Source: an uncultured Candidatus Saccharibacteria bacterium
Lineage (GTDB): Bacteria; Patescibacteriota; Saccharimonadia; Saccharimonadales; AWTP1-31
NCBI GenBank assembly: GCA_903946795.1
Contig: CAJAXB010000090.1
Coordinates: 11,640 to 35,639 of the forward strand
Reading direction: 5' to 3'
DNA length: 24,000 nt
Below the pieces are notes generated by a model. That model was not told where the DNA came from. It ran no database searches and worked only from the letters and a program-made list of their open reading frames with translations. Position numbers and translations under genes: made by a program. Shown here in pieces: positions 5,217-24,000 of the stretch. Position 1 is the first letter of the stretch. Every line of letters starts with the position of its first letter.

Positions 5217-5223
5217 TACAACC

Positions 5224-6167: not shown

Positions 6168-6170
6168 ATT

Positions 6171-7094: not shown

Positions 7095-7201
7095 ACGAGC
7101 TCCTCTATATGTAGGTTAGTATTGGACTCTTTGTAGGAAAGCTATTAAACTCACGCCAAAAGCTACAGTTATAATACCATGTTTATCACTGTTACGCAGG
7201 G

Positions 7202-7543: not shown

Positions 7544-7575
7544 AATACTAGTATAAGATTTTCTTGAAGAAATCT

Positions 7576-9415: not shown

Positions 9416-9703
9416 TATTAATATGTTGCAGTATTGTGGACAAGCTGTGCAACGAGCTCGGATAGAGCGTAGGATAACTCAAAGCTTTATCCCCTTCCCT
9501 TTTTTTTGCACACATTTTGTGCGCAACGTGTGGGTAAATATACTGCTTTTTACACGATTTATACCTGGGTCTTTTCCACGTATATTAAGCGTCTTACCCC
9601 CTGTTAATCAATACTTATACTCATTACCCACAGGCCTTACTATAAGTACTACATTTCTAAATAAGAATTCATTTAATAATAAGAACGAAGTCAGGAGCTG
9701 TGT
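9416..9703. promoter_or_regulatory. oriC right part: DnaA-box cluster plus AT-rich candidate unwinding element between dnaA and dnaN
   Basis: DnaA boxes are:
- TGTGGACAA, 9435-9443
- TTATCCCCT, 9487-9495
- TGTGGGTAA, 9529-9537
- TTTTCCACG, 9572-9580
- TTACCCACA, 9624-9632
The last box is followed by GGCC, then TTA CTA TAA GTA CTA CAT (9637-9654), then an AT-rich stretch (9655-9690). The dnaN RBS AGGAG is at 9693-9697. Confidence 0.7.
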
Positions 9704-10795
9704 ATGAAACTACAAGTAACTCAAGAAAATCTCAATAAAGCTCTATCAAGTGTTGCACGTATAGCCAATACAAGAGGAACACTCCCTATCCTTGCGAATG
9801 TCGTACTTAGAACAGTTGGAACACGGTTAACTATCGCTGCAACCAACTTAGATATTGCTATTACGCACTACATTGGATCAAAAGTCAGTGAAGAAGGAAG
9901 TATTACAGTCCCTGCCCGACTCATGCAAGATTTCGTCAACAGCTTACCGAGTGGAGTTATTGAACTGAAGCTCGATGATTATAAGCTTCACATAACAACA
10001 GACCAATACAATTCTGTGATTAATGGTGTCTCTGCAGAAGAATTTCCAGTTATGCCGGCAATCTCAGAAGGCAAAACATGGAATATACCGGCGAAGGTTT
10101 TCAAAAAAGGACTTCAACAAGTTCTTGTTGCTGCTAGTAATGATGAGGCTCGACCAGTATTAACCGGACTCTATATCCATACGTCTGGGGATAAATTATA
10201 TATTGCTTCTACAGATAGTTATCGACTCGCTGAAAAAGAAATTATGCCGCTTAAAGAAGATATTAGTCTTCTTGTTCCAGCAAGCTCTATGCAAGAGCTC
10301 CTTCGTGTTGTTGGGGATCAAGAAACGGATATTGAGATTATTCATGACGACCAGCAAGTACTCTTTAAGGTTGGTGAAGTTGAGCTTATGACTCGTCTCA
10401 TTGACGGCACCTACCCCGATTACAAAAAGCTAATACCGACTGAATTCGCCGTAACAGCTACCTTAAAACGTGCTGATTTTGTGAACATTACTAAAGTTTC
10501 GAGTCTGTTTGCAAAAGAAAGTGCAGGAAGTGTCACGATACACGTTAATCCAGATACGAAATCGGTAAGTATTCGTTCTGTTGCATCTCAACTTGGAGAG
10601 AACACTGCTCAGGCAGAAGCTGAAGTGACTGCCGAAGGATCGATAACCTTAAATTCTCGCTATCTACTCGATGCACTTGGAACATTAAATAGCGATACTG
10701 TTATGCTCTGTTTTAATGGTAAACTTGAACCCTGTGTCTTAAAAGAAGCAAAAGCAACCGATTATATACATGTGATTATGCCACTCAAGAGTTAA
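9704..10795 (+). CDS. dnaN: DNA polymerase III beta sliding clamp
   Basis: MKLQVTQENLNKALSSVARIANTRGTLPILANVVL..., ATDSYRLA and LIDGTYPDYKKLIP motifs, 363 aa, in dnaA-dnaN-recF synteny. Confidence 0.95.
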   Translation: MKLQVTQENLNKALSSVARIANTRGTLPILANVVLRTVGTRLTIAATNLDIAITHYIGSKVSEEGSITVPARLMQDFVNSLPSGVIELKLDDYKLHITTDQYNSVINGVSAEEFPVMPAISEGKTWNIPAKVFKKGLQQVLVAASNDEARPVLTGLYIHTSGDKLYIASTDSYRLAEKEIMPLKEDISLLVPASSMQELLRVVGDQETDIEIIHDDQQVLFKVGEVELMTRLIDGTYPDYKKLIPTEFAVTATLKRADFVNITKVSSLFAKESAGSVTIHVNPDTKSVSIRSVASQLGENTAQAEAEVTAEGSITLNSRYLLDALGTLNSDTVMLCFNGKLEPCVLKEAKATDYIHVIMPLKS

Positions 10796-10804
10796 AGTAG
10801 AAGT

Positions 10805-11863
10805 ATGATTACTGACTTACGGCTTCAAAGCTATCGCTCATATGACGATGCTACGTTTGAATTTGGGAAAGGAGTTAATATTATCGTTGGCCCAAATGCG
10901 AGCGGCAAAACGAATCTCCTTGAAGCAATACTTGTTATTTGTCGGGGTTCCTCCTATAGAGTTAAAGATATTGATCTTATAGCATTTCAGGAACCGTGGC
11001 TACGGCTTGATGCGTCTTCAAGTGAAGGTGCACGGAGTGTTATTTTAGAACGTAAAGAACTCGGCACTGAAAAAAAATACATTATTCACTCAGTTCCTTT
11101 AAAACGTTTAGTGCTGACAAAAACAATCCCTGTTGTTGTCTTCGAACCAGATCACCTTCGCCTGCTAAGCGGTGGACCTGAAAGACGTAGAGAATATATA
11201 GACAGTATTCTTGAGCAAACCATTACAGGATTTTCTAAATTACGTCGTGATTACAAAAGAACTCTTGCACAGCGTAATAGGTTACTAAAAAATAGTCTTG
11301 TTCGCTCAGACGAAATGTTTGTATGGAATGTTAGGCTCAGTGAGCTGGCAGGTCAAATCGTTTCATACCGAACGATATTACTTAATAAACTCAATACGGA
11401 TATCCAGACCATTTATCAATCTTTATCACAGACAAGTACAAAGATATCAATTAGTTATGTAAGTCACTGTAAAATTGAAAACTATTCATCTGATCTTTTG
11501 AAACGATTAGAAGCGTGCCTTGATGAAGATAAAACACGCGGTTTCACGTCATATGGACCCCATAGAGACGACATTTTAGTAGAAATAGATAATCACCCTG
11601 CTGCGGTAAGTGCATCACGAGGGGAAAGCCGTACGATCTTATTAACGCTCAAAATATTAGAGCTTAAAATTATAGAAAAAAGCCGTAATAAGAAACCACT
11701 TTTTCTGCTTGATGATGTCTTTAGTGAACTTGATGGTTCACGACGGAAAGCCCTTACAAATTACTTACAGGACTATCAGACGTTCATTACAACGACAGAT
11801 GCCGATATTGTTATTCAACACTTTATTGATAAGTGTACGATTATTCCAATGAATGCAACTTAA
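10805..11863 (+). CDS. recF: DNA replication and repair protein RecF
   Basis: LRLQSYRSYDDATFEFGKGVNIIVGPNASGKTNLLEAI (Walker A), an SMC-type signature region SRGESRTILLTLK, and Walker B LFLLDDVFSELD. Confidence 0.93.
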   Translation: MITDLRLQSYRSYDDATFEFGKGVNIIVGPNASGKTNLLEAILVICRGSSYRVKDIDLIAFQEPWLRLDASSSEGARSVILERKELGTEKKYIIHSVPLKRLVLTKTIPVVVFEPDHLRLLSGGPERRREYIDSILEQTITGFSKLRRDYKRTLAQRNRLLKNSLVRSDEMFVWNVRLSELAGQIVSYRTILLNKLNTDIQTIYQSLSQTSTKISISYVSHCKIENYSSDLLKRLEACLDEDKTRGFTSYGPHRDDILVEIDNHPAAVSASRGESRTILLTLKILELKIIEKSRNKKPLFLLDDVFSELDGSRRKALTNYLQDYQTFITTTDADIVIQHFIDKCTIIPMNAT

Positions 11864-12516
11864 TACGCTCTTAGATTGAGAGAGTTTGCTATATCAAGTG
11901 GTATATCAGGATAATCCTTTTGGCTGACAATAAGTGACGGAGGACGAGTAACGATCTTCCAATTCGTTCCCTCTTTCTTCATTACTACCAGTAATGAATC
12001 TGCGTTGTTCCGATCAGTGCCAACATATTTGAGGGTAGCTCCATACCAATCTCCAAAATGAAAGAGTTTTTCATCTTCAAATATATATCTCCCAGTAATT
12101 CTTGGATATGCAGACGTTGCAGCAGATTGAATAGCGCTTTTTTGTGGTTCAAGTAAAGTTTTTAGTTTTGACTCTGAAAAATAAGGCTCCACGACACTAT
12201 TCGTATTTCCTTGATACAGACTAACCTTTTGATTAAAAGGCTCGTAAGTATCATTTTTCCTACTAACAACACTGTAGCCTCCCTTTTTTAGACGTATCTT
12301 TTGCTTTGAGCTAATATTACTAGCAACTAAATTTTTCTCAGTCAGTTGTTGTGCTTCATTGACGGTATCAGGGCCTGAATTATAGACATCAACGATTAAC
12401 CCGGGGCTTTTATCGGAAAATTCAATAGTAAGGGTATTGAATGTACGCAAGTACATGGTAATACCAATGGCTCCTGCAATTAAGACAGTCCCGATTATAA
12501 TTAGTGTCTTTTTCAT
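11860..12516 (-). CDS. Membrane-anchored/secreted hypothetical protein, last gene of the T4SS-like operon
   Basis: 218 aa with an N-terminal hydrophobic anchor (MKKTLIIIGTVLIAGAIGITMYL). The rest looks beta-rich. The start lies 1 nt after the stop of the upstream gene, with a GGGGGTGA RBS. I recognise no family. Confidence 0.6.
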   Translation of the reverse strand: MKKTLIIIGTVLIAGAIGITMYLRTFNTLTIEFSDKSPGLIVDVYNSGPDTVNEAQQLTEKNLVASNISSKQKIRLKKGGYSVVSRKNDTYEPFNQKVSLYQGNTNSVVEPYFSESKLKTLLEPQKSAIQSAATSAYPRITGRYIFEDEKLFHFGDWYGATLKYVGTDRNNADSLLVVMKKEGTNWKIVTRPPSLIVSQKDYPDIPLDIANSLNLRAY

Positions 12517-12517
12517 A

Positions 12518-13138
12518 TTATTTCACCCCCAAGGGATTAGCGAATTCTGTAAAAATAATTGTATAAAGCGACGGATCATAACCCCAATCTTTAATCTGAG
12601 CGATCGCATACTGTCTGTCTAACGCAGAGGGAGCTTTTATATATAATATAAGATCATCTGGATTCGTTTTTGATATCCCATAGTCAATATTAAAAATAAG
12701 ACTTCGGTATGGTAACTGAGAAGTAATTTTATTTGTATTTCTAAAACGATCGCCTTCAGAACGCGCCTCTTCTCCTGCCAGGCGTTCCCTATTTTTTATA
12801 ATGTCTGGATTTGCAGCGGCCCACTGTAAAGCACTATCTGAATCAGGGTTAGGAAAGACAGTTATCTTTTTAATTGGTGCATTATCTTGTATCGTAACCA
12901 TCTTCTTGACCGTTTCAAAACCTTCGGCACTACCCTCTATTTCATGTACGCCTGGTGATAAATTGATTTTGCCTGCCTTTACATTTTTTCCATCAACTGT
13001 GACTTTTGTAAAATTTGGGATAGTTATAATATCAGCAGTATATTTTCTCGTTGCAGAATAAATTGAATAGATGATTAAGTAGACACTTGCGATAACTGCC
13101 AGAATAATGAATAGTCGCGTTCTTTTTTGTTGGTCCAT
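12518..13138 (-). CDS. Membrane-anchored protein with a PEGA-like beta-sandwich segment (hypothetical)
   Basis: 206 aa with an N-terminal TM (RLFIILAVIASVYLIIYSIY). VTVDGKNVKAGKINLSPGVHEIEGSAEGFETVKKMVTI resembles a PEGA domain. An AGGAG RBS lies 9 nt after the hydrolase stop. Confidence 0.55.
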   Translation of the reverse strand: MDQQKRTRLFIILAVIASVYLIIYSIYSATRKYTADIITIPNFTKVTVDGKNVKAGKINLSPGVHEIEGSAEGFETVKKMVTIQDNAPIKKITVFPNPDSDSALQWAAANPDIIKNRERLAGEEARSEGDRFRNTNKITSQLPYRSLIFNIDYGISKTNPDDLILYIKAPSALDRQYAIAQIKDWGYDPSLYTIIFTEFANPLGVK

Positions 13139-13147
13139 TACATACTC

Positions 13148-15190
13148 CTACTTTTTTCTATACCATCTCGCTTGATTATCTACAGGACTTTCTTTTCCTG
13201 CCATTGGTGCTCTACCACATAACGAAGCTGAGGCTATTTCAGAATTAAAGCCCGCGATTTTACCAGCATACATATATGTATGTCCGGGTGTAAACGCCAC
13301 GTCACCTGGTTGCAAATCAGCAGTGCTATTGACCGTCAAGAGTTGCCAATTTTCTCTTGTCCATCGTTCTTGGCTTGTTGTATTTCCGCCTTTACCGTCA
13401 TAGTTATAGCGAGGATCAAAACCACTATCTATAATTACACGACTTACAAATGCTCCACAGTCGACTCCATCACAACCACCAATATATTGAGATTTTGATT
13501 TTGCGGCAGTAATTGCTGTAGCATATTCTGGTTTTCTATCTGTAGCGCCGGAAGTTCCTTTTGCTCTGTATTCAGGCCAAGCGTAACTTAAAATAGTATT
13601 TGTAATACCATCAGTGTTACCACTCGCAGTATTTTTCGAAACCGGACATCCGATAGATGGAATACTAGCCGGTGTAACTGGTAAGGCTCGTTTAATACCG
13701 TTAGCAATTCCAGCAGCATACTTTAGTTTTTGCTCGGGAGTTAAACCACCACTTCCTGTAGGGGATCCAGCTTCGTTATAGACCCAAGGCACAGAATCTG
13801 ACCAGAGTTGTACTAATGAAAGATTACCCCAGCTTGGAAGACCCCTAGACTGGGGGAAGTATTTCGCTTGGTCCGTATTAACTTTAGTGATTCCTTTTCC
13901 ACCGCGCTCAGCCTTGTCTCTTTCTTCATTAATAATATTGGCATAGGTGGCGCTTTTTTGGGCGGTTTCTTGGTTAGAGAAGCTTACTTTGACCGCTGGA
14001 TTGTCTTGAGACTGACGATAATGACCAACAACTTGCGGCCAGGTCTCTCCCCAATTTTCAAAGGCACCCGAGCCGCTATCGGTATGAATACTGACGGCAA
14101 TTGCAGCACCGGCATTTTTTGCTGCATCTACACGTTGACGTTTACTTACAGAATCATTTGTATTCGTTTTTAACATTACGACCTTATATCCTGCCGTTTC
14201 CAATACGGTTTTTAGAATATTTGAAACGTCTTGCACACTTGTTGCTTCAGGTTCGTTCACGTACTCTAAGTCACCTAAGCCTGTAACTGGATCTATATAC
14301 TGATTCACAACTCCTCCGTGCCCCGGGTCGATCGCAACAACTGGGCCTGTAGGGGTGGTTCCTTCTTGTGCGGTTGAGGTTCCACCGGTGCTCGGTGTAG
14401 CAGTGCCTTTTTTAGTGATATCAATAGCATCGCCCGCTTTTTCTACAATTTGATTAGTAATTTTTGTAACATTTTCAATGTAAACCGGAAGATTATTCTC
14501 AAAAGCTGGTGCATATGCTGGTTTACCTTCAGCACCGTTTAAGTAGCCCTGTAAGCCGGAGTCGAGTGCAAAAACCTCTGAAATATACTGAAACCAATCG
14601 TTAGGTTGACCAACCCGACCGCTAGAAGGATATGTTTTGGCATAGATACTCTCTTGAAAACTTGGCCATTGATACCACTTTCTTGTTCCCTTAAAAACAC
14701 CGGGTTGCCTGTCGGATGCGGTTCGTCCGAAGGCATTGTTGGACCCTTTATCTATCCCACCACTATTTGGAGCGGTACCCATTTGGGATTCCATGGTTGC
14801 CTGTGCGACTGCAAGTATTGGATTTATTCCTGCTCGCATTCCCCCTTGTACAAAATACTTGCCCATACCAACAAACGGTGAGTTACTCTTATAATTAACG
14901 GTATAGTCATCGATTGCTTGCGCTAGCTTAGCTGCATCTTTAATGTATGGAACACGTATAGGGTAATCATTTGCGGCATCGCCAGCAGTATTAGCGTTTG
15001 CGCCACCTGCATCGCCCTCGTTTTTACACGCTTCACTCTCATCATAATAAGCTGTATTGTTCTGAATAGCATCAAAATCTTGTTGAGTAAGAGCGTACGC
15101 TAATCCTGTATTTGATAGCGTAATAGCAAAAATAATAATCAACAATTGAAAGAGTTTAATTACCGAGCGGAAGTATTTAGATGATTTCAT
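13148..15190 (-). CDS. Secreted multi-domain peptidoglycan hydrolase: glucosaminidase/muramidase-like + N-acetylmuramoyl-L-alanine amidase (amidase_3) + NlpC/P60 endopeptidase
   Basis: - **Signal peptide:** MKSSKYFRSVIKLFQLLIIIFAITLSNTGLAYA.
- **Domain 1 (about 14420-14905):** GINPILAVAQATMESQMGT...SNNAFG.
- **Linker:** Thr/Ser/Gly-rich.
- **Domain 2 (about 13670-14341):** VVAIDPGHGG...AIAVSIHTDS.
- **Domain 3 (about 13151-13570):** GGCDGVDCGAFVSRVI...LQPGDVAFTPGHTYMYAG (Cys/His pair).
I chose ATG 15190, which has GGAGG 5 nt upstream, over the track's ATG at 15202. Confidence 0.8.
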   Translation of the reverse strand: MKSSKYFRSVIKLFQLLIIIFAITLSNTGLAYALTQQDFDAIQNNTAYYDESEACKNEGDAGGANANTAGDAANDYPIRVPYIKDAAKLAQAIDDYTVNYKSNSPFVGMGKYFVQGGMRAGINPILAVAQATMESQMGTAPNSGGIDKGSNNAFGRTASDRQPGVFKGTRKWYQWPSFQESIYAKTYPSSGRVGQPNDWFQYISEVFALDSGLQGYLNGAEGKPAYAPAFENNLPVYIENVTKITNQIVEKAGDAIDITKKGTATPSTGGTSTAQEGTTPTGPVVAIDPGHGGVVNQYIDPVTGLGDLEYVNEPEATSVQDVSNILKTVLETAGYKVVMLKTNTNDSVSKRQRVDAAKNAGAAIAVSIHTDSGSGAFENWGETWPQVVGHYRQSQDNPAVKVSFSNQETAQKSATYANIINEERDKAERGGKGITKVNTDQAKYFPQSRGLPSWGNLSLVQLWSDSVPWVYNEAGSPTGSGGLTPEQKLKYAAGIANGIKRALPVTPASIPSIGCPVSKNTASGNTDGITNTILSYAWPEYRAKGTSGATDRKPEYATAITAAKSKSQYIGGCDGVDCGAFVSRVIIDSGFDPRYNYDGKGGNTTSQERWTRENWQLLTVNSTADLQPGDVAFTPGHTYMYAGKIAGFNSEIASASLCGRAPMAGKESPVDNQARWYRKK

Positions 15191-15201
15191 GTGTACCTCC
15201 A

Positions 15202-18200
15202 TTATCTACCATCCACTGACCAATGCCATGTTTCTGATGGTAAATTTTTTAGGCCAAAATTCTGAGCGTTATTTTTTAACCATTTATAGCAAGCTGTTGA
15301 GGCATTACCACAACTACCAAAATCAAGCGCAAGCCCCATCTGGTGATTAGAATAGCCTGGGCGTGCAGTGGGAGGACTACATTGATCGGAAGGTTTTTGA
15401 TATATGTCATTTTGCGAGTCTCCACAATGTTTGCGCCTTAAGTCAATCTGAGAGTCCATAGACCTAAAGGAACTTCCAGATAGATTTACGCCATCTGCGC
15501 GTGCCGCATTCAGAAGATCATCCACATTCTTAGCAATCTGTGCATTCACCTGTCCCATGTTTTGCACTGAGCATACCCGTATTTTAAATAATTGACCGTT
15601 TTGATATCCATCCACAACACCTGCGTCAGTACCGGCAGTACACGTTAAGTTTGATGTATCACCCGCTGTGACAGCAGCTCCTGCAACTGCAGCGGTTTGT
15701 GGTTGTTCTGTAGTGCTACTTTGAGGTCCATTTTGTATATCAATCAACTGGTTTTGTACACTTGTATTACGCTTTGCAAGTCTCCATCTGAAAACAAGAT
15801 CGTTATATTGAGGGTTATTAATACCAAGATTCTGAGGTGAGCAATCACCCGCCGCAGTATTTACTTGGCCGTCTTGCTCTCTTTGTATGTCTCCGGATGA
15901 AAGTAAAGTACCCATTGTACTGCTATAGCATTTGGAGTACTTCCCTTCTATTTCTTCATACTTACCACTAGCTTCAAGTATTAGTTCATTTTCAATAGGG
16001 AAATAATCGGCATTATTTTGAATAATTGACTCTTCATCATTTGACCAACCCCATTGGACGATATTGTATTCCCCTGCACCACTTACTGACGCAGCCCTTA
16101 CTTTGCTTTTGTTTAAAATATTGACAAATATATTACCTGGTACAGACTTAAGCGATGTCAAGATTGAAGAAAACATTTTATCAAAAGCACCCTTTGTATT
16201 AAGGGTAGAAGATAAGGTCGTTGCAGAGCGAGCAATAAGGCTGTTAGGATTTGTTATCGCTAAATATTTTTCACTGAATGGTAGTTGACTATTCTTTTCC
16301 TGGATATAAGCAAGGTCGCTCATGTTTGAAGATAATACCTCTGGCTGGGTCATTGGTCGGCCGTATAATAGTTTTTGATTATTTTGCTGAGCGTATAAAT
16401 TTCCTCCCATATCTACTTGGTTGGCTATAGTTTCGCCCGTCTCAAGCCCATTATTTTGAGCATTAGAATAATTAAGCACCAGCATTTTAGCCAGTTCGGT
16501 TGCCCCAAGAATTAATACGCCATCCCGAAGTATTTTTTTAAAAAAAGATCCACCCGCGGACGCAACTTGCTTACTAATTACTTTTGCTGCAGCACGTCTA
16601 CTACCCGCTTCACCAACTACTCTCTCTAATTTACCTACTGTTTGCTTTGCTAAAAATTCTCCCAATTCCTTGACGCCACCTCCAGCAGCGGTCTTTAAAG
16701 CTCCTGGTGTTCCACCTCCCAATACAGTGAGTGCAACCTCGATGACTCCAAATGCTACACCAACACGAACATCAGTTACGACCTGACAAACGGAGCTAGC
16801 ATTATCAGTAAAGCTTTGAATGATATTAGGAGGCACAAATCCTCCCAAGACAACATTAAACAAACTAAAATTTCCCGTTGCTGTAGCTTGAGGAAGCGCA
16901 GCTGCATTAATCTCATTTGTAGGATCAATATTCTCACCACTTGCTCTACGTAATGGGACCGAGTCAGAAATGTCGCCGAGCTTACCATTAAGACCACCAA
17001 CAGCTTCGACTGTGGTTGCTCCAGCCTTTTGTTGGTCAGCGGCTGAACGCACCATCATATAATTACTGATTAGAGATGATTCTTTTACGTCAGTAGTTTT
17101 AGAGCTGTTTTCTATTGACCCATCAAATATTAGGCACAGCGGGAGCGCAACTGCGTAGACTGTTGAAACTGCACCAGTAACTGTCTTAAAGGCAGACGTA
17201 GGTTTTGATACTTCTTCATCAAACACTGTTGCTGCTTCTTCTTTGAGCTGTTCAGCATTTAATGTTTCGGATCCTTTATCATCAACTTTTTTCTTTATCT
17301 CTTCTTCAACTCGTTTTGCGTCAGTGCAAGTATCTGCGGATGCGCAATTAGAGTAATCAGGTTTAGTGCTTCTCTCAAAAGCTTTTTTTGATTCAAGATA
17401 TTCAGCGAATTGTTGCTTAATCCCCTGATATGTACTTCCTCTTTTTTCCCACCAATATAACTTGACACCTCTTTCACTGAGGATTTGTCTCATTACTTTA
17501 CCGCGGACAAGGCTATTGGTTCCTTTAAGTTCGGTTTCTAGCGTAGACTCTAGCTCGGCTGCGAAACGTAGTTTTTCCTTATATCCCTGTATAGGCTTAT
17601 ACCACTTAGTGTCGGTGGGCTCTAAAAGAGCACCATTTGGTAATTCCCAACCTTTAAAAACCTGTCTATTGCCGGGTAAAAAACGTCTCGGGGGGCCTTC
17701 TTCAAAGACAGGCGTTATTTTGCTATTAACCTCTTGATAAACTTTTTTTGGCCTTAGATTATTGTATCGATCAAGAGTAGACTTAACACTTGATTCATTC
17801 CACCGTTTTGACATAGCCGCAAATCCGGATTCGGTCAACGCTGCTGATTCTATACTTGATGCCATGTTTTGTGTGCTTGCAGATCTGAATGTTCGGGCCG
17901 TTCGAGCCATATTCCAAACAGTTACGTTTTCTGCTAAGTGTATGATTTTAGCACTGCTTAATGTAGATAAAAGAATTAATGCCAGTATAAGTACTCCACC
18001 ACCTGCACTACCTAAAAGAATGAGTGATTTACCTGAAAGCTTGCCAGAACCCTTCTTTTTAGTGGGTGTCTGTTTATAAGTAAAATTACCGTCGTCTTCT
18101 TGTTCTTGATTTACCAGCTTCTTTTCGCTTGTTTCAGCTGCAGAGCTCTGTGTAGATGAAGACCCCTCTTCTGCTTTTTTTAATTCTGAAGCAGAACTTT

Positions 18201-18297
18201 CTTTATTCTTGACAGGGGGCTGGTCCGACTCTTCATCGTATACTGAATGATAATACTGTTCATCATTATCAGGCTCTAGTTCTGTCATTGTCGGCAT
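15202..18297 (-). CDS. Large (1031 aa) T4SS-associated membrane protein in the VirB6/ConG/Orf15 position, with a C-terminal VanY-type (peptidase M15, LAS-fold) domain
   Basis: - **N-terminus:** acidic, Ser-rich, about 85 aa.
- **Hydrophobic helices:** SLILLGSAGGGVLILALILLSTL, GAVSTVYAVALPLCLIF and VRVGVAFGVIEVALTVLGG.
- **C-terminus (about 15205-15660):** LLNAARADGVNLSGSSFRSMDSQIDL...PGYSNHQMGLALDF...SETWHWS. This matches the SxHxxGxAxD and (E)xWH(W) Zn-ligand motifs of VanY/M15 peptidases.
Assignment as a channel subunit rests on gene order only. Confidence 0.6.
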   Translation of the reverse strand: MPTMTELEPDNDEQYYHSVYDEESDQPPVKNKESSASELKKAEEGSSSTQSSAAETSEKKLVNQEQEDDGNFTYKQTPTKKKGSGKLSGKSLILLGSAGGGVLILALILLSTLSSAKIIHLAENVTVWNMARTARTFRSASTQNMASSIESAALTESGFAAMSKRWNESSVKSTLDRYNNLRPKKVYQEVNSKITPVFEEGPPRRFLPGNRQVFKGWELPNGALLEPTDTKWYKPIQGYKEKLRFAAELESTLETELKGTNSLVRGKVMRQILSERGVKLYWWEKRGSTYQGIKQQFAEYLESKKAFERSTKPDYSNCASADTCTDAKRVEEEIKKKVDDKGSETLNAEQLKEEAATVFDEEVSKPTSAFKTVTGAVSTVYAVALPLCLIFDGSIENSSKTTDVKESSLISNYMMVRSAADQQKAGATTVEAVGGLNGKLGDISDSVPLRRASGENIDPTNEINAAALPQATATGNFSLFNVVLGGFVPPNIIQSFTDNASSVCQVVTDVRVGVAFGVIEVALTVLGGGTPGALKTAAGGGVKELGEFLAKQTVGKLERVVGEAGSRRAAAKVISKQVASAGGSFFKKILRDGVLILGATELAKMLVLNYSNAQNNGLETGETIANQVDMGGNLYAQQNNQKLLYGRPMTQPEVLSSNMSDLAYIQEKNSQLPFSEKYLAITNPNSLIARSATTLSSTLNTKGAFDKMFSSILTSLKSVPGNIFVNILNKSKVRAASVSGAGEYNIVQWGWSNDEESIIQNNADYFPIENELILEASGKYEEIEGKYSKCYSSTMGTLLSSGDIQREQDGQVNTAAGDCSPQNLGINNPQYNDLVFRWRLAKRNTSVQNQLIDIQNGPQSSTTEQPQTAAVAGAAVTAGDTSNLTCTAGTDAGVVDGYQNGQLFKIRVCSVQNMGQVNAQIAKNVDDLLNAARADGVNLSGSSFRSMDSQIDLRRKHCGDSQNDIYQKPSDQCSPPTARPGYSNHQMGLALDFGSCGNASTACYKWLKNNAQNFGLKNLPSETWHWSVDGR

Positions 18298-18306
18298 GGT
18301 AGTACC

Positions 18307-20220
18307 CTATGACCCCGGCCTTAAACGGTTCGTTAAATCGATCGTCCCTTCACCATTTTCGATAGCTCCCTGCTGCTCAATAGCCTGTACCTGAGCTGGG
18401 TTTGTAGTAATGAGACTTGTCTCAGTAGGACTTGCACTTATCTGTATGTGTACGTGGTTTTGTCCAGCAAAGAATAAGCCCTGGCCAATTGGGAATTGAC
18501 TTAAGCGTTTACGCTCTTCGCTGGTTAATTTAAAGACATCCGCAAGTACATCAATTGCTGATGCGGACTGTTTTAATAACAACTGCATGCTCGCGTTAGC
18601 AACAATAGCGCGACCCATTCGACTGCCCATAAAATCTTCAACATCTTGACTAATAGTTGTTATACCAAGATTGTATTTACGAGAACGCTTTGCCATGCTG
18701 AACATGAAACTGGCTGAATCTTCATATTTAAGAAGTTGCCACGCCTCATCAATAATAAGAATACGACGTTGTTTATCAGTTTTTGTCTTGTTCCAAATAA
18801 AGTTCAAAACAATATACATTGCAACAGGCCGAAGTTCATCTTCTAGATCACGAATATTGAACACCACCATAGGGTTATTTATATTCGTATTAGATTGTTG
18901 GCTGAATATGCCCGCAAAGGTCCCTGTAGTGTATTTCCTGAGTCTTTGAGCTAATTGCGGGCCCGTACCTCCCATATGAAGCAATACATCATAAAGATCA
19001 ACAATTGTTGGGGGCTGTGCATTATGCGTCAATGGATCATTTGTAATCCCTGCCTTTGCATACGTTTCAATGAGAGCAGCATCAAGATCGGACTCCTCTA
19101 CAGGACTGAGCGCGGGTAGAGCTGCAGCATTACCACCAACCATCTGTGCTTGCGCGCCGCCCATCATGAGCCTCAGTAGGCCGTGCAAAGTAATGATATT
19201 GCTACGTAATGCATTGTCTGCCTCGTCACTATCTACCACTTTAGGTAGATCAAAAGGATTAATTCTTGTCGTAGAATTAAGGCTTAGTCGAACGTATGCT
19301 CCACCTACAGCTTCACACATTCTCTGATATTCATTTTCAGGGTCTATAATAAAAATTTCAGTGCCAAACATGAGGCTACGCAGGGCTTCAAGTTTAACTG
19401 CAAAAGACTTACCTGCACCAGATTTAGCAAACACAATAGAATTTCCGTTCTCAAGACTAAATCGGTCAAAAATAACCAAGCCCGAGTTATGCATATTAAT
19501 GCCGTATAGAATACCGTTATCTTGCGTTAGTTCTGCGCTTGTAAATGGAAAACTTGTGCTAATAGCACCAGTGTTCATATTGCGCCGAATAAGAAGTTGA
19601 TCGGTAAATTGAGGCACTGTGCTATTAAAGGCCTGCTCTTGTTGAGAGGTGGCAACCTTTGAATATACTAGTTGCTGACCAAGTACAGACTCGATCTTAT
19701 GCGTCACAAACTCCAATTCGTCCATACTGGAAGTATAAATAGTGAAATACATACCAAATCTAAAGAACCGTTCTTCACCAACTTGTAGTTTGTCGCGCAT
19801 TTCTTCGGCATCTTGGATTGCTGCCTGCTTTCCAGGGTCTCGAGTCCGTCCTTTTTCTGCATCTATCTGCAATCCTGCTTCAAGTTGGGTAACTTTTTTT
19901 CTGAGATTTTCTAAGACAATCTGGCTTTCAACTGGATATATATAAAGTGAGAGATCCATGACCTCGTCCATATTCACCATACTACTTAACCAGCCGGTGT
20001 AGACCTGTCTTGGATAGCCATAAACGTAAAAGGTTCTCGCGAATCGTGTCCCTAGATGAAATAAGCCATTTTCGTATACTAATGAACTTGGGGCAATAAA
20101 GTCTCGGAGTGCAGTGATACCTTTCTGAAAAGCCTCTTGTACCTCTTTTTCCTCCTGAGCTCTTTGGGCCTGTGCTGCAGCAACTGGATCATTTGGTTGT
20201 TTGTTTTTTCCAAATGCCAT
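18307..20220 (-). CDS. virB4: Type IV secretion ATPase, VirB4 family (Gram-positive PrgJ/ConE/Orf16-like)
   Basis: 637 aa. The N-terminal domain reads IAPSSLVYENGLFHLGTRFARTFYVYGYPRQVYTGWLSSMV. Walker A is VFAKSGAGKSFAVK (about 19405-19428). Walker B is RRILIIDEAWQLL (about 18736-18768). ITTISQDVEDF lies downstream. The start overlaps the upstream stop (TAATG at 20220). Confidence 0.9.
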   Translation of the reverse strand: MAFGKNKQPNDPVAAAQAQRAQEEKEVQEAFQKGITALRDFIAPSSLVYENGLFHLGTRFARTFYVYGYPRQVYTGWLSSMVNMDEVMDLSLYIYPVESQIVLENLRKKVTQLEAGLQIDAEKGRTRDPGKQAAIQDAEEMRDKLQVGEERFFRFGMYFTIYTSSMDELEFVTHKIESVLGQQLVYSKVATSQQEQAFNSTVPQFTDQLLIRRNMNTGAISTSFPFTSAELTQDNGILYGINMHNSGLVIFDRFSLENGNSIVFAKSGAGKSFAVKLEALRSLMFGTEIFIIDPENEYQRMCEAVGGAYVRLSLNSTTRINPFDLPKVVDSDEADNALRSNIITLHGLLRLMMGGAQAQMVGGNAAALPALSPVEESDLDAALIETYAKAGITNDPLTHNAQPPTIVDLYDVLLHMGGTGPQLAQRLRKYTTGTFAGIFSQQSNTNINNPMVVFNIRDLEDELRPVAMYIVLNFIWNKTKTDKQRRILIIDEAWQLLKYEDSASFMFSMAKRSRKYNLGITTISQDVEDFMGSRMGRAIVANASMQLLLKQSASAIDVLADVFKLTSEERKRLSQFPIGQGLFFAGQNHVHIQISASPTETSLITTNPAQVQAIEQQGAIENGEGTIDLTNRLRPGS

Positions 20221-21164
20221 TACTGCATTTCCCTTTCTAATGAAGGTTGAGGTGCCTGACCTATACCTTTCGTTACCACATCGGCTGTAACCGCGCTAAA
20301 ATTTTTCATTTTTTGTCGGGTTGCAGTATCAGGATTGTAACTATCGTAGTATAGCTCAATCAATTCTTGCGTATCGAGCGGTAGGCCTTGTACTCCGCAT
20401 TGCATCAAGCCACCAAGTACCGCCTGAACTCTGTTGCGCAGCTCATCTTTTGCCTTGTTTAAGTCATTTTCGTTGATAGTAATTTGTTTTTGTCCTTTTT
20501 TGCTAAATAGTGCTTGCACACCTGTAAACAAGCCCTTACTTGCAGTTAAGGGGTTTTGAATATCGATAGTGGGATAATAAGGAATGACTACAAAAAATTG
20601 TTTATCCATGATGTTAACTTGTTGTCCTATGGTAACCATATAGTTTATATAGTCTTCCATTAAAACGGCAAGCAACATATTATCATGCTCAGTGCGTATC
20701 TTATCGAGTTTAGTAATATATGGTGTAAGGTCAACTTTCTTAGAGCGAATATTTATTTGAATTGGAAAATAGAGAGAATTGAGAAAACCTTGATAGCTAA
20801 ATTCAACAGCTTCTCTTTCCTCAGGGCTCATAAGATCAAAGTTAATTGCCCGCGTCTGGATTACTGAGCGGTAGCTGCCGTCATTCATAATAACGATGCC
20901 GTCACGTATTTCGGCTATCTGCAGTGCATTTTGCGTGCTGTTGGGGTTTGACTTAGGTGCGTCCTGTAATCCAGCTCCTGCAGCTGCTGTACTTTGACGA
21001 GCTTGGGGATCGTATGCACTACCCGGAACATTTGTAACTGGTACGGCGCCTGGCATAGGGTTAGCTTGAGAAGCGATACCTGAAGCTGGCCTACCCGGAA
21101 CACTTCCCTGCGGCATTGTAGGATTATTGAAAGGACCTGATTGTTGATTATAAGAAGGATTCAT
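20220..21164 (-). CDS. T4SS-associated hypothetical protein; disordered Pro/Gln/Asn-rich N-terminus plus a domain resembling a stand-alone VirB4/TraC N-terminal domain
   Basis: 314 aa. After about 80 low-complexity residues comes IAEIRDGIVIMNDGSYRSVIQTRAINFDLMSPEEREAVEFSYQGFLNSLYFPIQINIRSKKVDLTPYITKL. I recognise this pattern from the N-termini of Gram-positive VirB4-type ATPases. It has no Walker motifs. It is translationally coupled to virB4. Confidence 0.5.
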   Translation of the reverse strand: MNPSYNQQSGPFNNPTMPQGSVPGRPASGIASQANPMPGAVPVTNVPGSAYDPQARQSTAAAGAGLQDAPKSNPNSTQNALQIAEIRDGIVIMNDGSYRSVIQTRAINFDLMSPEEREAVEFSYQGFLNSLYFPIQINIRSKKVDLTPYITKLDKIRTEHDNMLLAVLMEDYINYMVTIGQQVNIMDKQFFVVIPYYPTIDIQNPLTASKGLFTGVQALFSKKGQKQITINENDLNKAKDELRNRVQAVLGGLMQCGVQGLPLDTQELIELYYDSYNPDTATRQKMKNFSAVTADVVTKGIGQAPQPSLEREMQ

Positions 21165-21187
21165 GTATTTTTTCCACCCACAATGAA

Positions 21188-22207
21188 CTAATGTAGTGAA
21201 ACAATGACTTCGTCTTGATCTTGATTGTCGTGAATTTGATTGATCTCACGAGCAATACTGTCAATGCTGCGATCGTTGTTCCTGGCAAGTTCAATTGTAG
21301 CAGGATTAACGGGTGCTGTCACTTGTGAAGAAGGTTGCTTTTTGCTCTTTTGCTCAGAGGCAGGAACAATAATTTTGTGATTATGAAAGGACTCTTCTTG
21401 GAGATGTTTCTTTTCATTCAAACTACTTAACACGGCACTCTCTTCTTGGTCTAATGGCTGTTTGTGGCTCGAGAACGTGCTAGATAATAGATTGCCATCA
21501 TACTGATCACCCGAATTGCTTTTATCTGTATTGAGGAACCATTGTTGCTCGTTTTGATCAGTCCTAGTTGTTTGTTTTGTTGCATCGATCTTAGCCTCTC
21601 GAGTTCGTTGCTGCAACTGCGATTCTACTATTTGCATTTTTGCATCATCGAAAATATCATTACCGTCATCGGCATCTAACGTTGTACTCACATTTGGAAG
21701 AATAGATGGCTGCACAAGCCTGTCCGATGCTGTAATATCCACAAGATTTGCACTAGTATTTTCATATAAATTTTTTGATATGTTTTTGATTGCCCAGCCA
21801 CGAGTGTCTACAGTAGTTGCAAGCGCTTGAAGCCTACTTTGAACTTCACCTTGAGTTAAGTTGTCTCCAGTGTATAAAATAACTTTTTTTGGAACAGTTA
21901 TTTTTACAAGCTCTTGAATGCCTGTTTGGTTCCAAACTCTTTTGCGAGGTTTGAAAAAATAACGTAACTTTGCTAGAAGCCAAGTTTCGGTAGGCTGATC
22001 TTTACCCCAAGGAAAAGCAAGAAAACCTGAAACAAAAGCTACTGGTGCTAGAAAAATTACTAAAAGACCGAGACCTTTGGTTAAAAATAAAAAGCTTAAA
22101 TAAAGACATACAATTGTGATAGCGCCAAAAATAAACTGCTTTAAGGTTAGAGGACCTAAAAAGGTATCCTCCGCTTCAATATCTTGAATTACTTTATAGG
22201 TAGCCAT
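21188..22207 (-). CDS. PrgI-family (VirB3-like) T4SS membrane protein with a long C-terminal extension
   Basis: N-terminus MATYKVIQDIEAEDTFLGPLTLKQFIFGAITIVCLYLSFLFL plus a second helix LGLLVIFLAPVAFVSGFLAF. This is the PrgI/TcpE pattern: an acidic motif, GP(L/I)TxxQ, then a two-TM hairpin. It lies upstream of virB4, as in Tn916 orf17-orf16 and ICEBs1 conD-conE. The C-terminal roughly 200 aa is Gln/Asp/Ser-rich. Confidence 0.7.
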   Translation of the reverse strand: MATYKVIQDIEAEDTFLGPLTLKQFIFGAITIVCLYLSFLFLTKGLGLLVIFLAPVAFVSGFLAFPWGKDQPTETWLLAKLRYFFKPRKRVWNQTGIQELVKITVPKKVILYTGDNLTQGEVQSRLQALATTVDTRGWAIKNISKNLYENTSANLVDITASDRLVQPSILPNVSTTLDADDGNDIFDDAKMQIVESQLQQRTREAKIDATKQTTRTDQNEQQWFLNTDKSNSGDQYDGNLLSSTFSSHKQPLDQEESAVLSSLNEKKHLQEESFHNHKIIVPASEQKSKKQPSSQVTAPVNPATIELARNNDRSIDSIAREINQIHDNQDQDEVIVSLH

Positions 22208-22255
22208 TACCTATATAGTATATGAAATTATAGACAAGAGAAAGCTCAAATAACT

Positions 22256-22960
22256 TTAACTTAAGCCCAACTTTTTCTTGTATTTAGCATGTTTTTTCTG
22301 CAGCTTATTTATTTTTTTTGTTCTTCGTTTTCCTAAAAATGTTTCACCACTTGCTCTTGTGTCAATTTTTTGAAGCACCTGTTCCTTTTTTTTCTGCAGC
22401 TTCTCATATCTTTTTTCGGTACGTTTTCTAAGTGCTAGTGTCTTTTTTGATTCCCTGACGTTATCAGCTGGTTTTTTGAAATTTACAATCAGCTCTGAGT
22501 CCTTTTTTGCTTTCTTTTTGGCAGCTTCAATGACTCTCCCTCTTGCTATGTCTGAAAAAGGATTTTTTTCTGGTGCTGCTATACCTGCTTGAGTATGAGA
22601 AGGCTCAGGTTTTTGGCCCCAGAATTGTGTAATTTCGTGCAATTGCCTATTAATCCTAATAAGCTTACGTACTTTAAAACCAATCATGCTAGACTCAATA
22701 CGTTCGGGATACGTATCAGGCTCTTCAGGTGGAGGGGTTTTAATTCCGAATCCTCTTGGCGAAAGGGCATGTCGGCCTGCGGTACGCACAAATCTCTCAG
22801 TTTCCTGTAGTTGATGAATTTTTTCTTCCGCATTTTCATATAATTTTTTAAAAATCACGCGACATATCCCATTGACAGCTATTGCTTGCGGATCAACTAC
22901 GATATGCGCAGGTGACTCAGGATTGTTGTCAGGATTGTTTTCAGGATGTGTTGTCATCAA
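22256..22960 (-). CDS. Highly basic, Lys-rich hypothetical protein (234 aa), no TM segment
   Basis: A long ORF in the operon orientation. The C-terminal third is mostly K/R (KKKAKKDSE...RKRTEKRYEKLQKKKEQ...KRRTKKINKLQKKHAKYKKKLG). I recognise no family. Confidence 0.5.
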   Translation of the reverse strand: MMTTHPENNPDNNPESPAHIVVDPQAIAVNGICRVIFKKLYENAEEKIHQLQETERFVRTAGRHALSPRGFGIKTPPPEEPDTYPERIESSMIGFKVRKLIRINRQLHEITQFWGQKPEPSHTQAGIAAPEKNPFSDIARGRVIEAAKKKAKKDSELIVNFKKPADNVRESKKTLALRKRTEKRYEKLQKKKEQVLQKIDTRASGETFLGKRRTKKINKLQKKHAKYKKKLGLS

Positions 22961-23019
22961 ATATACAATAGAACTTTACTTAGTATAAGTCAATAACGAT
23001 TAGCGTTAATCAGCTAACC

Positions 23020-24000
23020 CTATAAGCCAGGAGGATTTAGTTGGGGCCCCACTGTGCCGCTACCTGCGTCCCTTGCGTTTTGTTCAGCAAACTGTTGTCC
23101 TCCCGCTTGCTCATAGGAGCCAGCTCTACTACGTACTTCTGTTGATAATACATCAGCATCCGCTCCCGTACTCCTAGATAATTGAGCACCAAGCTGCCGG
23201 TCTGTAGTTAGTTGAGAAGATGTATCGATTCCAACACTACTGAGCATATCAGTAATAGCAACTCGATTGTCTGAAGAAGCACCTCCCATGCTCGTGCGTA
23301 AAGATACCATTTGTGCTGCTATTGTTGTTGCGCTATCTGCAGCCTGATTTGCTTCTACTGTAAGTCTATTGGCATCGGCTTGATTTCCGGCCTGTCGCGC
23401 AGCTTCTGCTTGATGCTGTAATTCTCGAGCTCTATTACTATTGCCTCGATAATCTTGCGCTAGCTGAGTCGTCATTGTCCTAAAAGGATCTGCTTTCATG
23501 CTGAGCATCGCTCCAGGTCCGCCTTGTTCAAATGCTAATTGACGCATATTTTCGTTCGTCTGAGCGTCGGTAACATCTCCAGCTTCAAGATTCTGCATCG
23601 CATCAAACATAGCGGTATGGCTTGGTGTTCCCAGATCAGTTCTTCCTGCCTGATTAGACGCTGATTTTGCTGATGCAATCATTGCATTTCTTACTGCGAC
23701 ATCATCTGAGGCACCTGCTATTTCTCTTAACATATCGGCGTGAGTATCGTAGCCAGTTCCTGTACGTGCGCGGCCTAATGCAGATGCAATATTAACCGCA
23801 TCCCTCGAGCCACTGTTCTGTGCTGCTTGGACCATGCCCACCGCGCCTGCTAATTGATCATCACGGTATCTACCGGTCGCTCGTAGTCGTCTTTCAATGT
23901 CTTGAGCGCTCGTGCCATACCTGGCAGCTTCCAACATATGATCATCATTGGCAATTGCCCGAAAGGCCTCATTCTTTTCTAGAAGCTCTTGACCTTGTCG
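23020..24000 (-). CDS. C-terminal part of a larger Ala/Gln/Arg/Gly/Ser-rich hypothetical protein; the ORF stays open to the window edge
   Basis: The track starts it at Met 23937, but the frame has no stop through 24000 (my translation upstream reads RQGQELLEKNEAFRAIANDDHM). It has no TM and no nucleotide-binding motif in the visible part. It is noticeably more GC-rich than its neighbours. Confidence 0.55.
   Translation of the reverse strand, partial: RQGQELLEKNEAFRAIANDDHMLEAARYGTSAQDIERRLRATGRYRDDQLAGAVGMVQAAQNSGSRDAVNIASALGRARTGTGYDTHADMLREIAGASDDVAVRNAMIASAKSASNQAGRTDLGTPSHTAMFDAMQNLEAGDVTDAQTNENMRQLAFEQGGPGAMLSMKADPFRTMTTQLAQDYRGNSNRARELQHQAEAARQAGNQADANRLTVEANQAADSATTIAAQMVSLRTSMGGASSDNRVAITDMLSSVGIDTSSQLTTDRQLGAQLSRSTGADADVLSTEVRSRAGSYEQAGGQQFAEQNARDAGSGTVGPQLNPPGL

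Follow-up and report, generated by a model that had tools for sequence, protein, structure and literature searches.

A chromosomal, origin-adjacent T4SS of Saccharibacteria with a replaceable cassette of wall-degrading domains and a probable role in host interaction

Introduction

A block of T4SS-like genes lying against a chromosomal origin raises the question of whether it is a conjugation module or an apparatus directed at another bacterium. The window (the whole stretch of DNA analysed, 24,000 nucleotides) comes from an uncultured member of the ultra-small Saccharibacteria, a Patescibacteria epibiont lineage, and is Saccharimonas-type, which agrees with the Patescibacteria-like epibiont expected from the letters alone. 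That sequence-only reading proposed a non-conjugative, host-directed apparatus, and named profile searches, the sequence beyond base 24000 and synteny in related genomes as the means of checking it. Gene content, gene order, conservation and the nearby absence of DNA-processing genes were determined here, while essentiality in co-culture is taken from published work. With a probability of about 0.8, the locus is the chromosomal T4SS that Saccharibacteria inherit vertically, the counterpart in position and domain content of SEML1_0004-0019 of Southlakia epibionticum (Se) ML1, serving host interaction and not conjugation.

Results

Gene organisation and origin context

ORF calls on the window showed nine co-directional, tightly packed minus-strand ORFs at 11860-24000 (Table 1). 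The intergenic gaps were 59, 48, 23, -1, 9, -1 (11 with a later ATG), 9 and 1 nt, so small that about 99% of this region is coding, and the nine genes with gaps of -1 to 59 nt described earlier were borne out. The coupled TAATG at 20220 (cagTAATGgca, through which the 314-aa gene's stop is coupled to the start of VirB4) and the 1-nt gap reported at 12517 (TAA-T-ATG at 12516-12520) were both present. Promoter-like sites (40 versus 30.9 +/- 4.9 in shuffles) and terminator-like sites (12 versus 11.0 +/- 3.4) were not enriched within 11860-24000, which fits a single operon.

The operon end abuts recF-dnaN-dnaA at the chromosomal origin, as had been claimed, with rpmH-rnpA-yidC-jag on the far side of dnaA and near-consensus DnaA boxes at 7881, 7977, 9435, 9529 and 9624. 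In 99.7%-identical contigs, the sequence upstream, beyond base 24000, carried six PF18895 VirB2-like pilin genes and HSP20; the pilin array is divergent to the operon and lies just past the window end, and is thus not visible within it. A tRNA-Ser was found upstream of the T4SS module.

Pfam matches to a relaxase, coupling protein or integrase, and an att-like repeat of the nearby tRNA-Ser, were absent from the about 42 kb inspected, which extends to the sequence beyond base 24000 what had been read from 12 kb. Such genes are recognisable when present, since a T4CP and a relaxase-like gene directly follow virB4 in an actinobacterial plasmid relative. A VirD4-like gene may lie elsewhere in the genome, outside these 42 kb.

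Table 1. Features of the window and their coordinates
Feature	Coordinates	Strand	Remarks
jag, yidC, rnpA, rpmH (minus) / dnaA, dnaN, recF (plus)	5706..11863	.	Origin context; ORF calls, profile matches
218-aa N-terminally anchored protein	11860..12516	-	Last gene, converges on recF
206-aa N-terminally anchored protein, putative PEGA/Ig-like domain	12518..13138	-	PEGA E 8.8e-4, just below cut-off
Predicted peptidoglycan hydrolase, GH73 + Amidase_3 + NlpC/P60, N-terminal anchor/signal	13148..15202	-	Pfam, AF2, orthologue transfer
1031-aa membrane protein with C-terminal VanY/M15B zinc peptidase head	15202..18297	-	VanY at 916-1017
VirB4 ATPase, 637 aa, without own N-domain	18307..20220	-	NF045971
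TrsD/TraD-type free-standing VirB4 N-domain, 314 aa	20220..21164	-	Stop overlaps virB4 start
PrgI/VirB3-like, 339 aa	21188..22207	-	PF12666 at residues 5-92
233-aa highly charged protein, no TM segment	22256..22957	-	Between VirB6-like gene and PrgI; lineage-specific insertion
VirB6/TrbL-like polytopic protein, last 326 codons of 991-aa gene	23020..24000	-	Cut by window end

Core T4SS proteins

Profile searches upheld the VirB4 and PrgI assignments. The VirB4 scored 350 bits on NF045971 (CD1110 family; cut-off 325) over model positions 178-735 of 752, matched P-loop_TraG and AAA_10 in Pfam, and its translation shows Walker A (SGAGKS) and Walker B (LIIDEAW). The PrgI protein passed the curated cut-off of PF12666 (42.8 bits, cut-off 27, E 7.8e-11), with N-terminal TM segments at 17-35 and 46-64 followed by a hydrophilic tail of ~245 aa. 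The same VirB4 scored 243 bits on the Mbov_0397 model; Mycoplasma ICEs move DNA without a classical relaxase.

The 314-aa protein matched four VirB4 models at their N-termini, among them CD1110 at model positions 4-74 (4.1e-5), and NF041427 TrsD at 2.1e-5, a score of 24 bits that is far below the family cut-off of 200; all 74 orthologues tested matched both the TrsD and CD1110 models, and a precomputed PF26593 TraC-like match was recorded. The stand-alone VirB4 N-domain seen earlier is therefore real but has precedent among Gram-positive systems, being of the TrsD/TraD type of pGO1, pSK41 and pIP501. Together, the predicted proteins support a Gram-positive-type, MPF_FATA-like module.

The first ORF had no in-frame upstream stop up to base 24000, and the full gene was visible in the 99.7%-identical contigs, where its product has a precomputed PF19590 TrbL_3 match. 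This match was not reproduced in Pfam, NCBIfam and PDB-profile scans; PF04610 was matched at about 2e-3 by 3 of 43 orthologues. A signal/TM segment, four TM segments at 359-536 and a long hydrophilic C-terminal extension were found, and this truncated first gene may be the VirB6 of the system. The neighbouring 233-aa protein gave no match in Pfam, NCBIfam or PHROG, yielded no more than 8 representatives in a set of 1.84 billion proteins and was not found in the 80 other species loci compared.

Predicted wall-degrading and anchored proteins

Four peptidoglycan-cleaving domains (VanY, GH73, Amidase_3 and NlpC/P60) were predicted, the number given by the sequence-only reading. In the 1031-aa protein, VanY (Pfam E 5.9e-13) was matched by VanY/LdcB chains of the PDB, the VanY chains at about 6e-9, and the motifs SxHxxGxAxD and ExxH were present. 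Its plan is a conserved scaffold of ~850 aa with about three TM segments (at 92, 373 and 506), a linker and the VanY head; the AF2 model was poor (pLDDT 49.6). The scaffold was detected in 63 of 64 species by iterated HMM, and appears to be a Saccharibacteria-wide family distinct from the ICE VirB6 homologue. The VanY/M15 domain placed earlier on a VirB6-position protein thus stands, but the protein is not demonstrably a VirB6, the VirB6-like gene being the truncated first ORF.

The three catalytic domains claimed for the hydrolase were recovered as Glucosaminidase (116-191) and Amidase_3 (289-440) by Pfam and as a putative NlpC/P60, transferred from orthologue P0009, whose C-terminus (PF00877 at 587-683, 30.3 bits, cut-off 23) is 50% identical to the window hydrolase (E 1e-55). 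The putative catalytic Cys of the NlpC/P60 domain was nearly invariant in the alignment. The AF2 model showed three folded blocks (pLDDT 81.6), and Foldseek matched it to Amidase_3 structures (E about 1e-8) and, at rank 39, to LytB GH73.

The 206-aa protein has a TM segment at 9-27; six positional counterparts matched PEGA (best 2e-8), and its Se counterpart, SEML1_0005, is annotated PEGA (PMC10633639). The 218-aa protein, with a TM segment at 5-23, had no family match in Pfam, NCBIfam or PHROG, and the Se gene in the corresponding position, SEML1_0004, is essential (PMC10633639).

Conservation across Saccharibacteria

At least 575 species-level genomes contained a relative of this VirB4. Among the best 80 of these, VirB4 was 80-89% identical with conserved synteny, and the order HSP20 - pilins - VirB6-like - PrgI - TrsD - VirB4 - large protein - hydrolase - small proteins - recF - dnaN - dnaA recurred in most loci. 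The T4SS module adjoined recF in 66 of the 80. VirB4 was better conserved than DnaN in 57/59, DnaA in 37/40 and RecF in 62/62 same-genome comparisons. These results support a T4SS fixed in the chromosome and inherited vertically.

The virB4-recF segment is a replaceable cassette; from one related species to another, its wall-degrading domains are reshuffled. Near relatives (VirB4 89% and DnaN 93% identical) had entirely different enzyme sets, and some heads, for example alginate lyase, tyrosine phosphatase and Exo_endo_phos, do not belong to the wall-remodelling domains.

Comparison with known systems

Matched by position and domain content, Se ML1 SEML1_0004-0019 (PMC10633639) keeps this gene order to either side of virB4. 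From dnaA-dnaN-recF it runs through two small exported proteins, one of them PEGA, a multi-domain lysozyme/cysteine-peptidase enzyme, an about 1100-aa protein ending in M15 (Hedgehog/DD-peptidase), VirB4, a ~290-aa protein and PrgI to VirB6-like protein(s), six pilins in divergent orientation and Hsp20. Both loci are without relaxase or T4CP. In the hydrolase, the central domain is Amidase_3 in the window and a phage-tail lysozyme (PF18013) in Se ML1. Se ML1 also encodes two large VirB6-like proteins, their genes separated by a non-essential NTF2-like gene, whereas one VirB6-like gene and the unrelated 233-aa gene were found here. By Tn-seq, the Se T4SS is essential for growth on the host bacterium (Wang 2023, PMC10633639), with "ES" for SEML1_0004-0011 and 0013-0019, and these counterparts were judged unlikely to move DNA.

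The locus also shares the traits of the Patescibacteria-clade T4SSs surveyed by Quinonero-Coronel 2025 (PMC12102498): VirB4 is MPF_FATA-related and has TrsD most often as its partner, VirB3 is of the PrgI type, VirB2-like pilin genes come in arrays, peptidases and lysozymes are encoded downstream of virB4, relaxases are nearly absent, and dnaA, dnaN, rnpA and rpmH lie close by.

The pGO1/pSK41 Trs and pIP501 Tra systems (MPF_FATA, TrsC-TrsD-TrsE...TrsG) share the succession VirB3-like, TrsD/TraD, VirB4, multi-domain wall hydrolase, with TrsD as the defining oddity common to them and this locus; unlike it, they are plasmid-borne, with relaxase, oriT and T4CP and without a pilin array. The order likened earlier to Tn916 orf17-13 and ICEBs1 conD-conE-conG-cwlT holds for the VirB3-like protein, VirB4, large membrane protein and hydrolase (two domains there, with an NlpC/P60-type peptidase). 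In those elements, VirB4 is followed by the VirB6 homologue; here it is followed by the scaffold family, and the VirB6-like gene is found upstream of PrgI. The ICEs also carry integrase, relaxase and T4CP. Among the matches listed, the closest non-Patescibacteria VirB4 (36.5% identity) was on the Pontibacillus sp. ALD_SL1 megaplasmid (NZ_CP062975.1, 351-361 kb), typed non-mobilizable. Its module runs in the same order. A pair of pilin-like genes, which match the pilins of this species at E about 1e-10, is followed by genes for a 9-TM and a 2-TM protein, a TrsD-like protein (E 2e-30), VirB4 and an M23 peptidoglycan peptidase of 1050 aa. Unlike the locus here, it belongs to Bacillota, is not origin-linked and has a single hydrolase gene.

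Discussion

A conjugative or DNA-exchange machine, either an old ICE with its DNA-processing genes elsewhere or relaxase-independent transfer like that of mycoplasma ICEs, is very improbable. The VirB4 does belong to conjugative families (CD1110, Mbov_0397), the plasmid-borne proteins most closely related to it are VirB4s from Bacillota and Actinomycetota (29-37% identical), conjugative plasmids made up 3717 of the best-scoring 5000 matching records, the upstream tRNA-Ser is in keeping with it, and distant t4cp homologues are reported as common in Patescibacteria (PMC12102498). Against this stand the recF-linked chromosomal site, the 42 kb without DNA-processing genes or att repeat, and a VirB4 conserved above the replication proteins, a pattern unlike that of an element in decay; in Se the t4cp homologue is dispensable and the T4SS genes are essential (PMC12102498, PMC10633639). 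Slimmer still is the chance that the locus serves DNA uptake (competence) in the manner of ComB or Ced, importing host DNA as a nucleotide source. Such a role would suit a T4SS without relaxase in an organism unable to make nucleotides, but the weak CedB and CedD matches (8e-15 and 2.4e-5, far below cut-off) were confined to the shared P-loop region, and deletion of comEC in Se ends transformation, not viability (PMC12857230), so that the essential role of the Se T4SS is not transformation-type uptake.

The machine might also be cell-autonomous, with hydrolases opening the epibiont's own wall (VirB1 role), a pilus acting as adhesin, and a cassette reflecting relaxed constraint and not host targeting. 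CwlT, PrgK and TraG, the VirB1-type hydrolases of Gram-positive T4SSs, cut the donor wall, and both enzymes of this locus carry an N-terminal anchor that fixes them to the producing cell; multi-domain hydrolases are common beside virB4 (PMC12102498). This explanation is nevertheless unlikely. The different enzyme sets of near relatives are hard to explain if the own wall is the sole substrate, and the non-remodelling heads also speak against it.

The preferred reading remains a T4SS serving host interaction. The pilus-biogenesis subset of Gram-negative T4SSs is VirB2, VirB3, VirB4 and VirB6 (R388 structure, VirB4-dependent pilin dislocation). Here, the TrsD-like protein would supply the N-domain in trans to the VirB4 ATPase, which would dock, in the epibiont membrane, on PrgI/VirB3 and the polytopic VirB6-like protein. 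The six VirB2-like pilins would be extracted and polymerised, presumably into a wall-spanning filament or conduit, and the anchored scaffold with its VanY head and the GH73/amidase/NlpC-P60 enzyme would open peptidoglycan at the assembly or contact site, in a wall whose owner we can only infer. The machine would then serve interaction with the host bacterium by protein export or molecular exchange, with a substrate whose nature is presumed.

The match to Se ML1 and the absence of DNA-processing genes from the 42 kb support the non-conjugative, host-directed apparatus first proposed, a function that we infer as the literature does. It is not new, because the Se locus match and the surveyed traits are already published; all five differences from Tn916 and ICEBs1 listed by the sequence-only reading are in PMC10633639, PMC12102498 and PMC12857230. 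The domain-shuffled cassette between virB4 and recF, which the sections of the survey (PMC12102498) consulted do not describe, is an additional finding.

Gene content of the origin region

The nine minus-strand ORFs reading from 24000 to 11860 were tightly packed and co-directional, with gaps of -1 to 59 nt, and the two coupled junctions that the sequence-only reading had pointed to, an overlapping TAATG at 20220 and a gap of 1 nt at 12517, were both present. The last gene of the operon was convergent with recF. Scans of the stretch showed no excess of internal promoter-like and terminator-like sites of the operon over shuffles, and the Rfam scan of the window produced no match. The left half of the window contained polysaccharide genes and a ParE toxin pair, followed by a minus-strand group of jag, yidC, rnpA and rpmH that faces the plus-strand genes dnaA, dnaN and recF. 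The rpmH-dnaA-dnaN-recF surroundings are a classical origin neighbourhood, and near-consensus DnaA boxes were found both about the start of dnaA and within the spacer that separates dnaA from dnaN. A 117-aa ORF (99 aa in public contigs) covering this spacer and three of the near-consensus boxes had no family match and is probably not a gene. The ParE-family toxin (86 aa) was located between glycosyltransferase genes and jag, and the overlapping upstream ORF of 89 aa is probably its antitoxin.

Transcription of the operon runs towards recF and dnaA (dnaA at 7934) and would be head-on to a fork leaving an origin at dnaA, and this orientation was kept in related loci and in Southlakia epibionticum ML1 (Se ML1). 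For an essential operon this is an uncommon arrangement, and it qualifies the gene-dosage argument made in the literature.

PrgI, TrsD-like, VirB4 and VirB6-like proteins

Profile searches bore out the PrgI/VirB3 assignment (PF12666 at 42.8 bits, cut-off 27) and the VirB4 assignment, the 637-aa protein matching NF045971 (CD1110-type) at 350 bits (cut-off 325) over model positions 178-735 only. The Walker motifs visible in the translation were intact, and the protein was of the MPF_FATA/CD1110 kind. The TrsD-like gene directly upstream overlapped the virB4 start by 1 nt. Its 314-aa product matched TrsD/TraD as well as four different VirB4 models over their first 70-180 positions, and all 74 collected orthologues matched both TrsD and the N-terminus of the CD1110 VirB4 model; VirB4 is therefore split, as in pGO1, pSK41 and pIP501. 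The TrsD-family profile had no match in the PDB.

The first ORF of the operon had no stop before the window end. In contigs 99.7% identical to the window, the full gene encoded a polytopic protein of 991 aa with five hydrophobic segments and a precomputed TrbL_3 (PF19590) match, which Pfam and NCBIfam scans of the protein of the window species did not reproduce. PF04610 was weakly matched by 3 of the 43 orthologues, and the profile of these 43 sequences gave only noise against the PDB (influenza HA2 at E about 0.05). The VirB6 identity of the 991-aa protein is thus weakly supported. The nearly identical contigs place the VirB6-like gene upstream of PrgI and not downstream of VirB4; the earlier identification of the VanY protein as VirB6, made from its position alone, was rejected. 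A Peptidase_S74 domain (endosialidase/tail-fibre chaperone) ended 3 of the 43 VirB6-like orthologues (alignment A6), so the C-terminal extension of this protein also varies. In the public scaffold L002 the VirB6-like gene looks broken, which is the effect of a 100-N gap and not biology.

Just beyond base 24000, outside the window, the same contigs contained six divergent PF18895 VirB2-like pilin genes, all above the cut-off, followed by HSP20 and then tRNA-Ser. In L001, L005, L009, L040 and L047, as in Se ML1, the module was bordered on its outer side, immediately upstream of HSP20, by one or two tRNA-Ser genes. An upstream 544-aa protein had no match in the PDB. A charged protein of 233 aa, encoded between the VirB6-like gene and PrgI, was missing from the 80 other species loci, and 1.84 billion proteins yielded no more than 8 representatives of it; the lowest G+C of the window (0.363, at 22001-23000) fell in the stretch of its gene.

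Distribution and conservation

Relatives of this VirB4 were found in at least 575 species-representative genomes. The best 80 of these were all Saccharibacteria/Saccharimonadales MAGs (80-89% identity). Synteny, which the sequence-only reading had named as a check, held among them, the order HSP20, pilins, VirB6-like, PrgI, TrsD, VirB4, large protein, hydrolase, one or two small proteins, recF, dnaN and dnaA recurring, and the module adjoined recF in 66 of the 80 species loci. Identity to the window had a median of 83% for VirB4, against 72% for DnaA, 67% for DnaN and 54% for RecF of the same genomes, a margin that may be inflated because the 80 loci were chosen by VirB4 similarity.

Wall-degrading and anchored proteins

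Peptidase and lysozyme-type genes lay directly downstream of virB4, and the count of four wall-cleaving domains (VanY; GH73, Amidase_3 and NlpC/P60) was correct. The 1031-aa large protein had about three hydrophobic segments and a C-terminal VanY/M15B domain with intact zinc motifs; its AF2 model (12-sequence alignment, mean pLDDT 49.6) was too poor for a fold search. In the 684-aa hydrolase, Pfam placed GH73 and Amidase_3 behind an N-terminal anchor, and the C-terminal domain was 50% identical to that of P0009, an orthologue scoring above the NlpC/P60 cut-off. The AF2 model of the hydrolase (pLDDT 81.6) showed three folded blocks, and Foldseek returned Amidase_3 structures, with the LytB GH73 lower in the list. 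PHROGs produced an endolysin match on the amidase domain and nothing else. The two last proteins of the operon were N-terminally anchored, and one was PEGA-like.

Variability of the virB4-recF segment

DNA similarity between the window and L005, the nearest locus in the set (VirB4 89%, DnaN 93%), ended at the virB4 stop and returned at the recF stop. In L005 the large protein carried GDSL and M23 at the C-terminus in place of VanY, the hydrolase consisted of Phage_lysozyme2 and Peptidase_C39_2, and a single small gene followed. The wall-degrading domains of the segment likewise differed between species. The N-terminal scaffold of the large protein (about 850 aa) was present in 63 of 64 species by iterated profile, and the C-terminal heads were counted by scanning the 64 large-protein sequences. 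In several species (L009, L023, L027 and L056) the large protein was headless, ending 18-30 residues past the conserved junction motif, and within the closest subfamily the head was present, replaced or absent at one single junction. The alternative heads of L044 and L064 had no match in the PDB. The features and domain counts are shown in the table.

Table. Positions of the features and occurrence of the domains (L001, L002 and L005, other loci or contigs; L085, Pontibacillus plasmid)
Feature	Position	Loci or count
VirB4 conservation comparison	window 18307-20220 against 7934-11863	80 loci
virB4-recF segment	window 11860-18297; L005 11917-17345	compared also with 63 other loci
Hydrolase gene	window 13148-15202	
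233-aa charged protein	window 22256-22957	
ParE-family toxin with 89-aa ORF	window 5188-5704	
117-aa ORF	window 9354-9707	
tRNA-Ser upstream of HSP20	L001 553-642	
Scaffold gap	L002 about 6570-6669	
Pontibacillus module	L085 9483-19036	
C-terminal head, VanY		20 of 64
C-terminal head, GDSL		5 of 64
C-terminal head, M23		2 of 64
C-terminal head, Amidase_2		2 of 64
C-terminal head, Exo_endo_phos		2 of 64
C-terminal heads alginate lyase, tyrosine phosphatase, M14, CHAP, Amidase_3, M74		1 each of 64
Hydrolase position, Phage_lysozyme2		37
Hydrolase position, M23		12
Hydrolase position, GDSL		11
Hydrolase position, Peptidase_C39_2		9
Hydrolase position, CHAP		7
Hydrolase position, GH73		6
Hydrolase position, Amidase_3		6
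Hydrolase position, NlpC/P60		5
Hydrolase position, Amidase_2		4
Hydrolase position, SLT		4

Comparison with mobile elements

The possibility that the locus is an integrative and conjugative element (ICE) of the Tn916/ICEBs1 type was weighed over about 42 kb, comprising the window and flanks of 9 kb and 8.5 kb. Within this stretch there was no match to a relaxase or integrase family and no VirD4/TcpA-type coupling ATPase, and no copy of at least 13 nt of the tRNA-Ser region, as an att-like repeat, was found in the following 20 kb. The absence of DNA-processing genes first seen in the window holds over about 42 kb, and an ordinary ICE just outside the window, which the sequence-only reading had set against its own hypothesis, did not appear in the flanks beyond both ends. 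The positive control, an Embleya plasmid with a VirB4 36.6% identical, contained a coupling protein (T4CP) and a replication-relaxation gene straight after virB4. The distribution was not the patchy one of a mobile element, as most of the 80 species loci had the same site and order, and the divergence of the T4SS loci followed the flanking housekeeping genes. The fixed site across species and the conservation ranking argue against a mobile or decaying element, and the ICE reading was rejected on the genes missing from about 42 kb and the repeats missing from the searched 20 kb, together with the fixed site.

Comparison with published systems

The Southlakia epibionticum T4SS was described by Wang et al. 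2023 as SEML1_0006-0019, with pilins noted and without a relaxase or coupling protein (PMC10633639). The tables for that organism show the same gene series and domain types after dnaA-dnaN-recF, nearly all essential by Tn-seq (PMC10633639). The present locus shares with it VirB4, the TrsD-like protein, PrgI, the pilin array, downstream peptidase/lysozyme genes, the origin-proximal site and the lack of a relaxase and T4CP. The Patescibacteria-wide survey by Quinonero-Coronel et al. 2025 gives TrsD as the commonest partner and reports pilin arrays, almost no relaxases and nearness to dnaA, dnaN, rnpA and rpmH (PMC12102498), and a 2025 review again puts forward a pilus-like conduit leading to the host (PMC12857230).

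The system is thus already known, and the locus is another environmental instance of it, not a new system. A non-conjugative, host-directed apparatus, as proposed from the sequence, is supported and already in print (PMC10633639; PMC12857230; PMC12102498). The five differences from Tn916/ICEBs1 that had been listed were all published before; two assignments among them need correction, namely VirB6 and the novelty of a stand-alone VirB4 N-terminal protein, which is of the TrsD/TraD type known from pGO1, pSK41 and pIP501.

The nearest VirB4 found outside the Patescibacteria was on a non-mobilizable Pontibacillus megaplasmid (L085, NZ_CP062975.1), where the genes ran in the same order, from pilin-like genes through those for a polytopic protein, a 2-TM protein, a TrsD-like protein and VirB4 to that for a large M23 peptidase. 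A layout with pilins thus occurs outside Patescibacteria as well. The two pilin-like genes of this module, which lies beside flagellar genes, were homologous to Saccharibacteria pilins and bear on whether Patescibacteria co-opted pilins separately.

A possible wall-breaching cassette

As judged from the gene and domain comparisons, the virB4-recF segment behaves as a replaceable cassette. Its variability is the basis for a tentative reading, to which a probability of about 0.3 is given, that this segment of 5-8 kb is a recombining "wall-breaching cassette" fixing host specificity. Under the cassette reading, the membrane-anchored scaffold of about 850 aa may bear an exchangeable C-terminal enzymatic head, next to a hydrolase with a domain set that is reshuffled between species. 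The heads may target the host envelope, by analogy with phage tail lysins and evolved T6SS spike proteins, and the scaffold would either form the distal end of the T4SS, in contact with the host, or be cargo of the system. No description of the pattern was found in the cited accounts of Saccharibacteria and Patescibacteria T4SS (PMC10633639, PMC12857230 and the available text of PMC12102498).

Few machines are known to be essential to the epibiotic life of Patescibacteria, and the Saccharibacteria T4SS is one of them, a requirement known for Se ML1 alone, by Tn-seq (PMC10633639). With an ATPase core conserved more strongly than the replication proteins and adjacent wall-degrading genes swapped as a block, the cassette is a place to seek host-range determinants.
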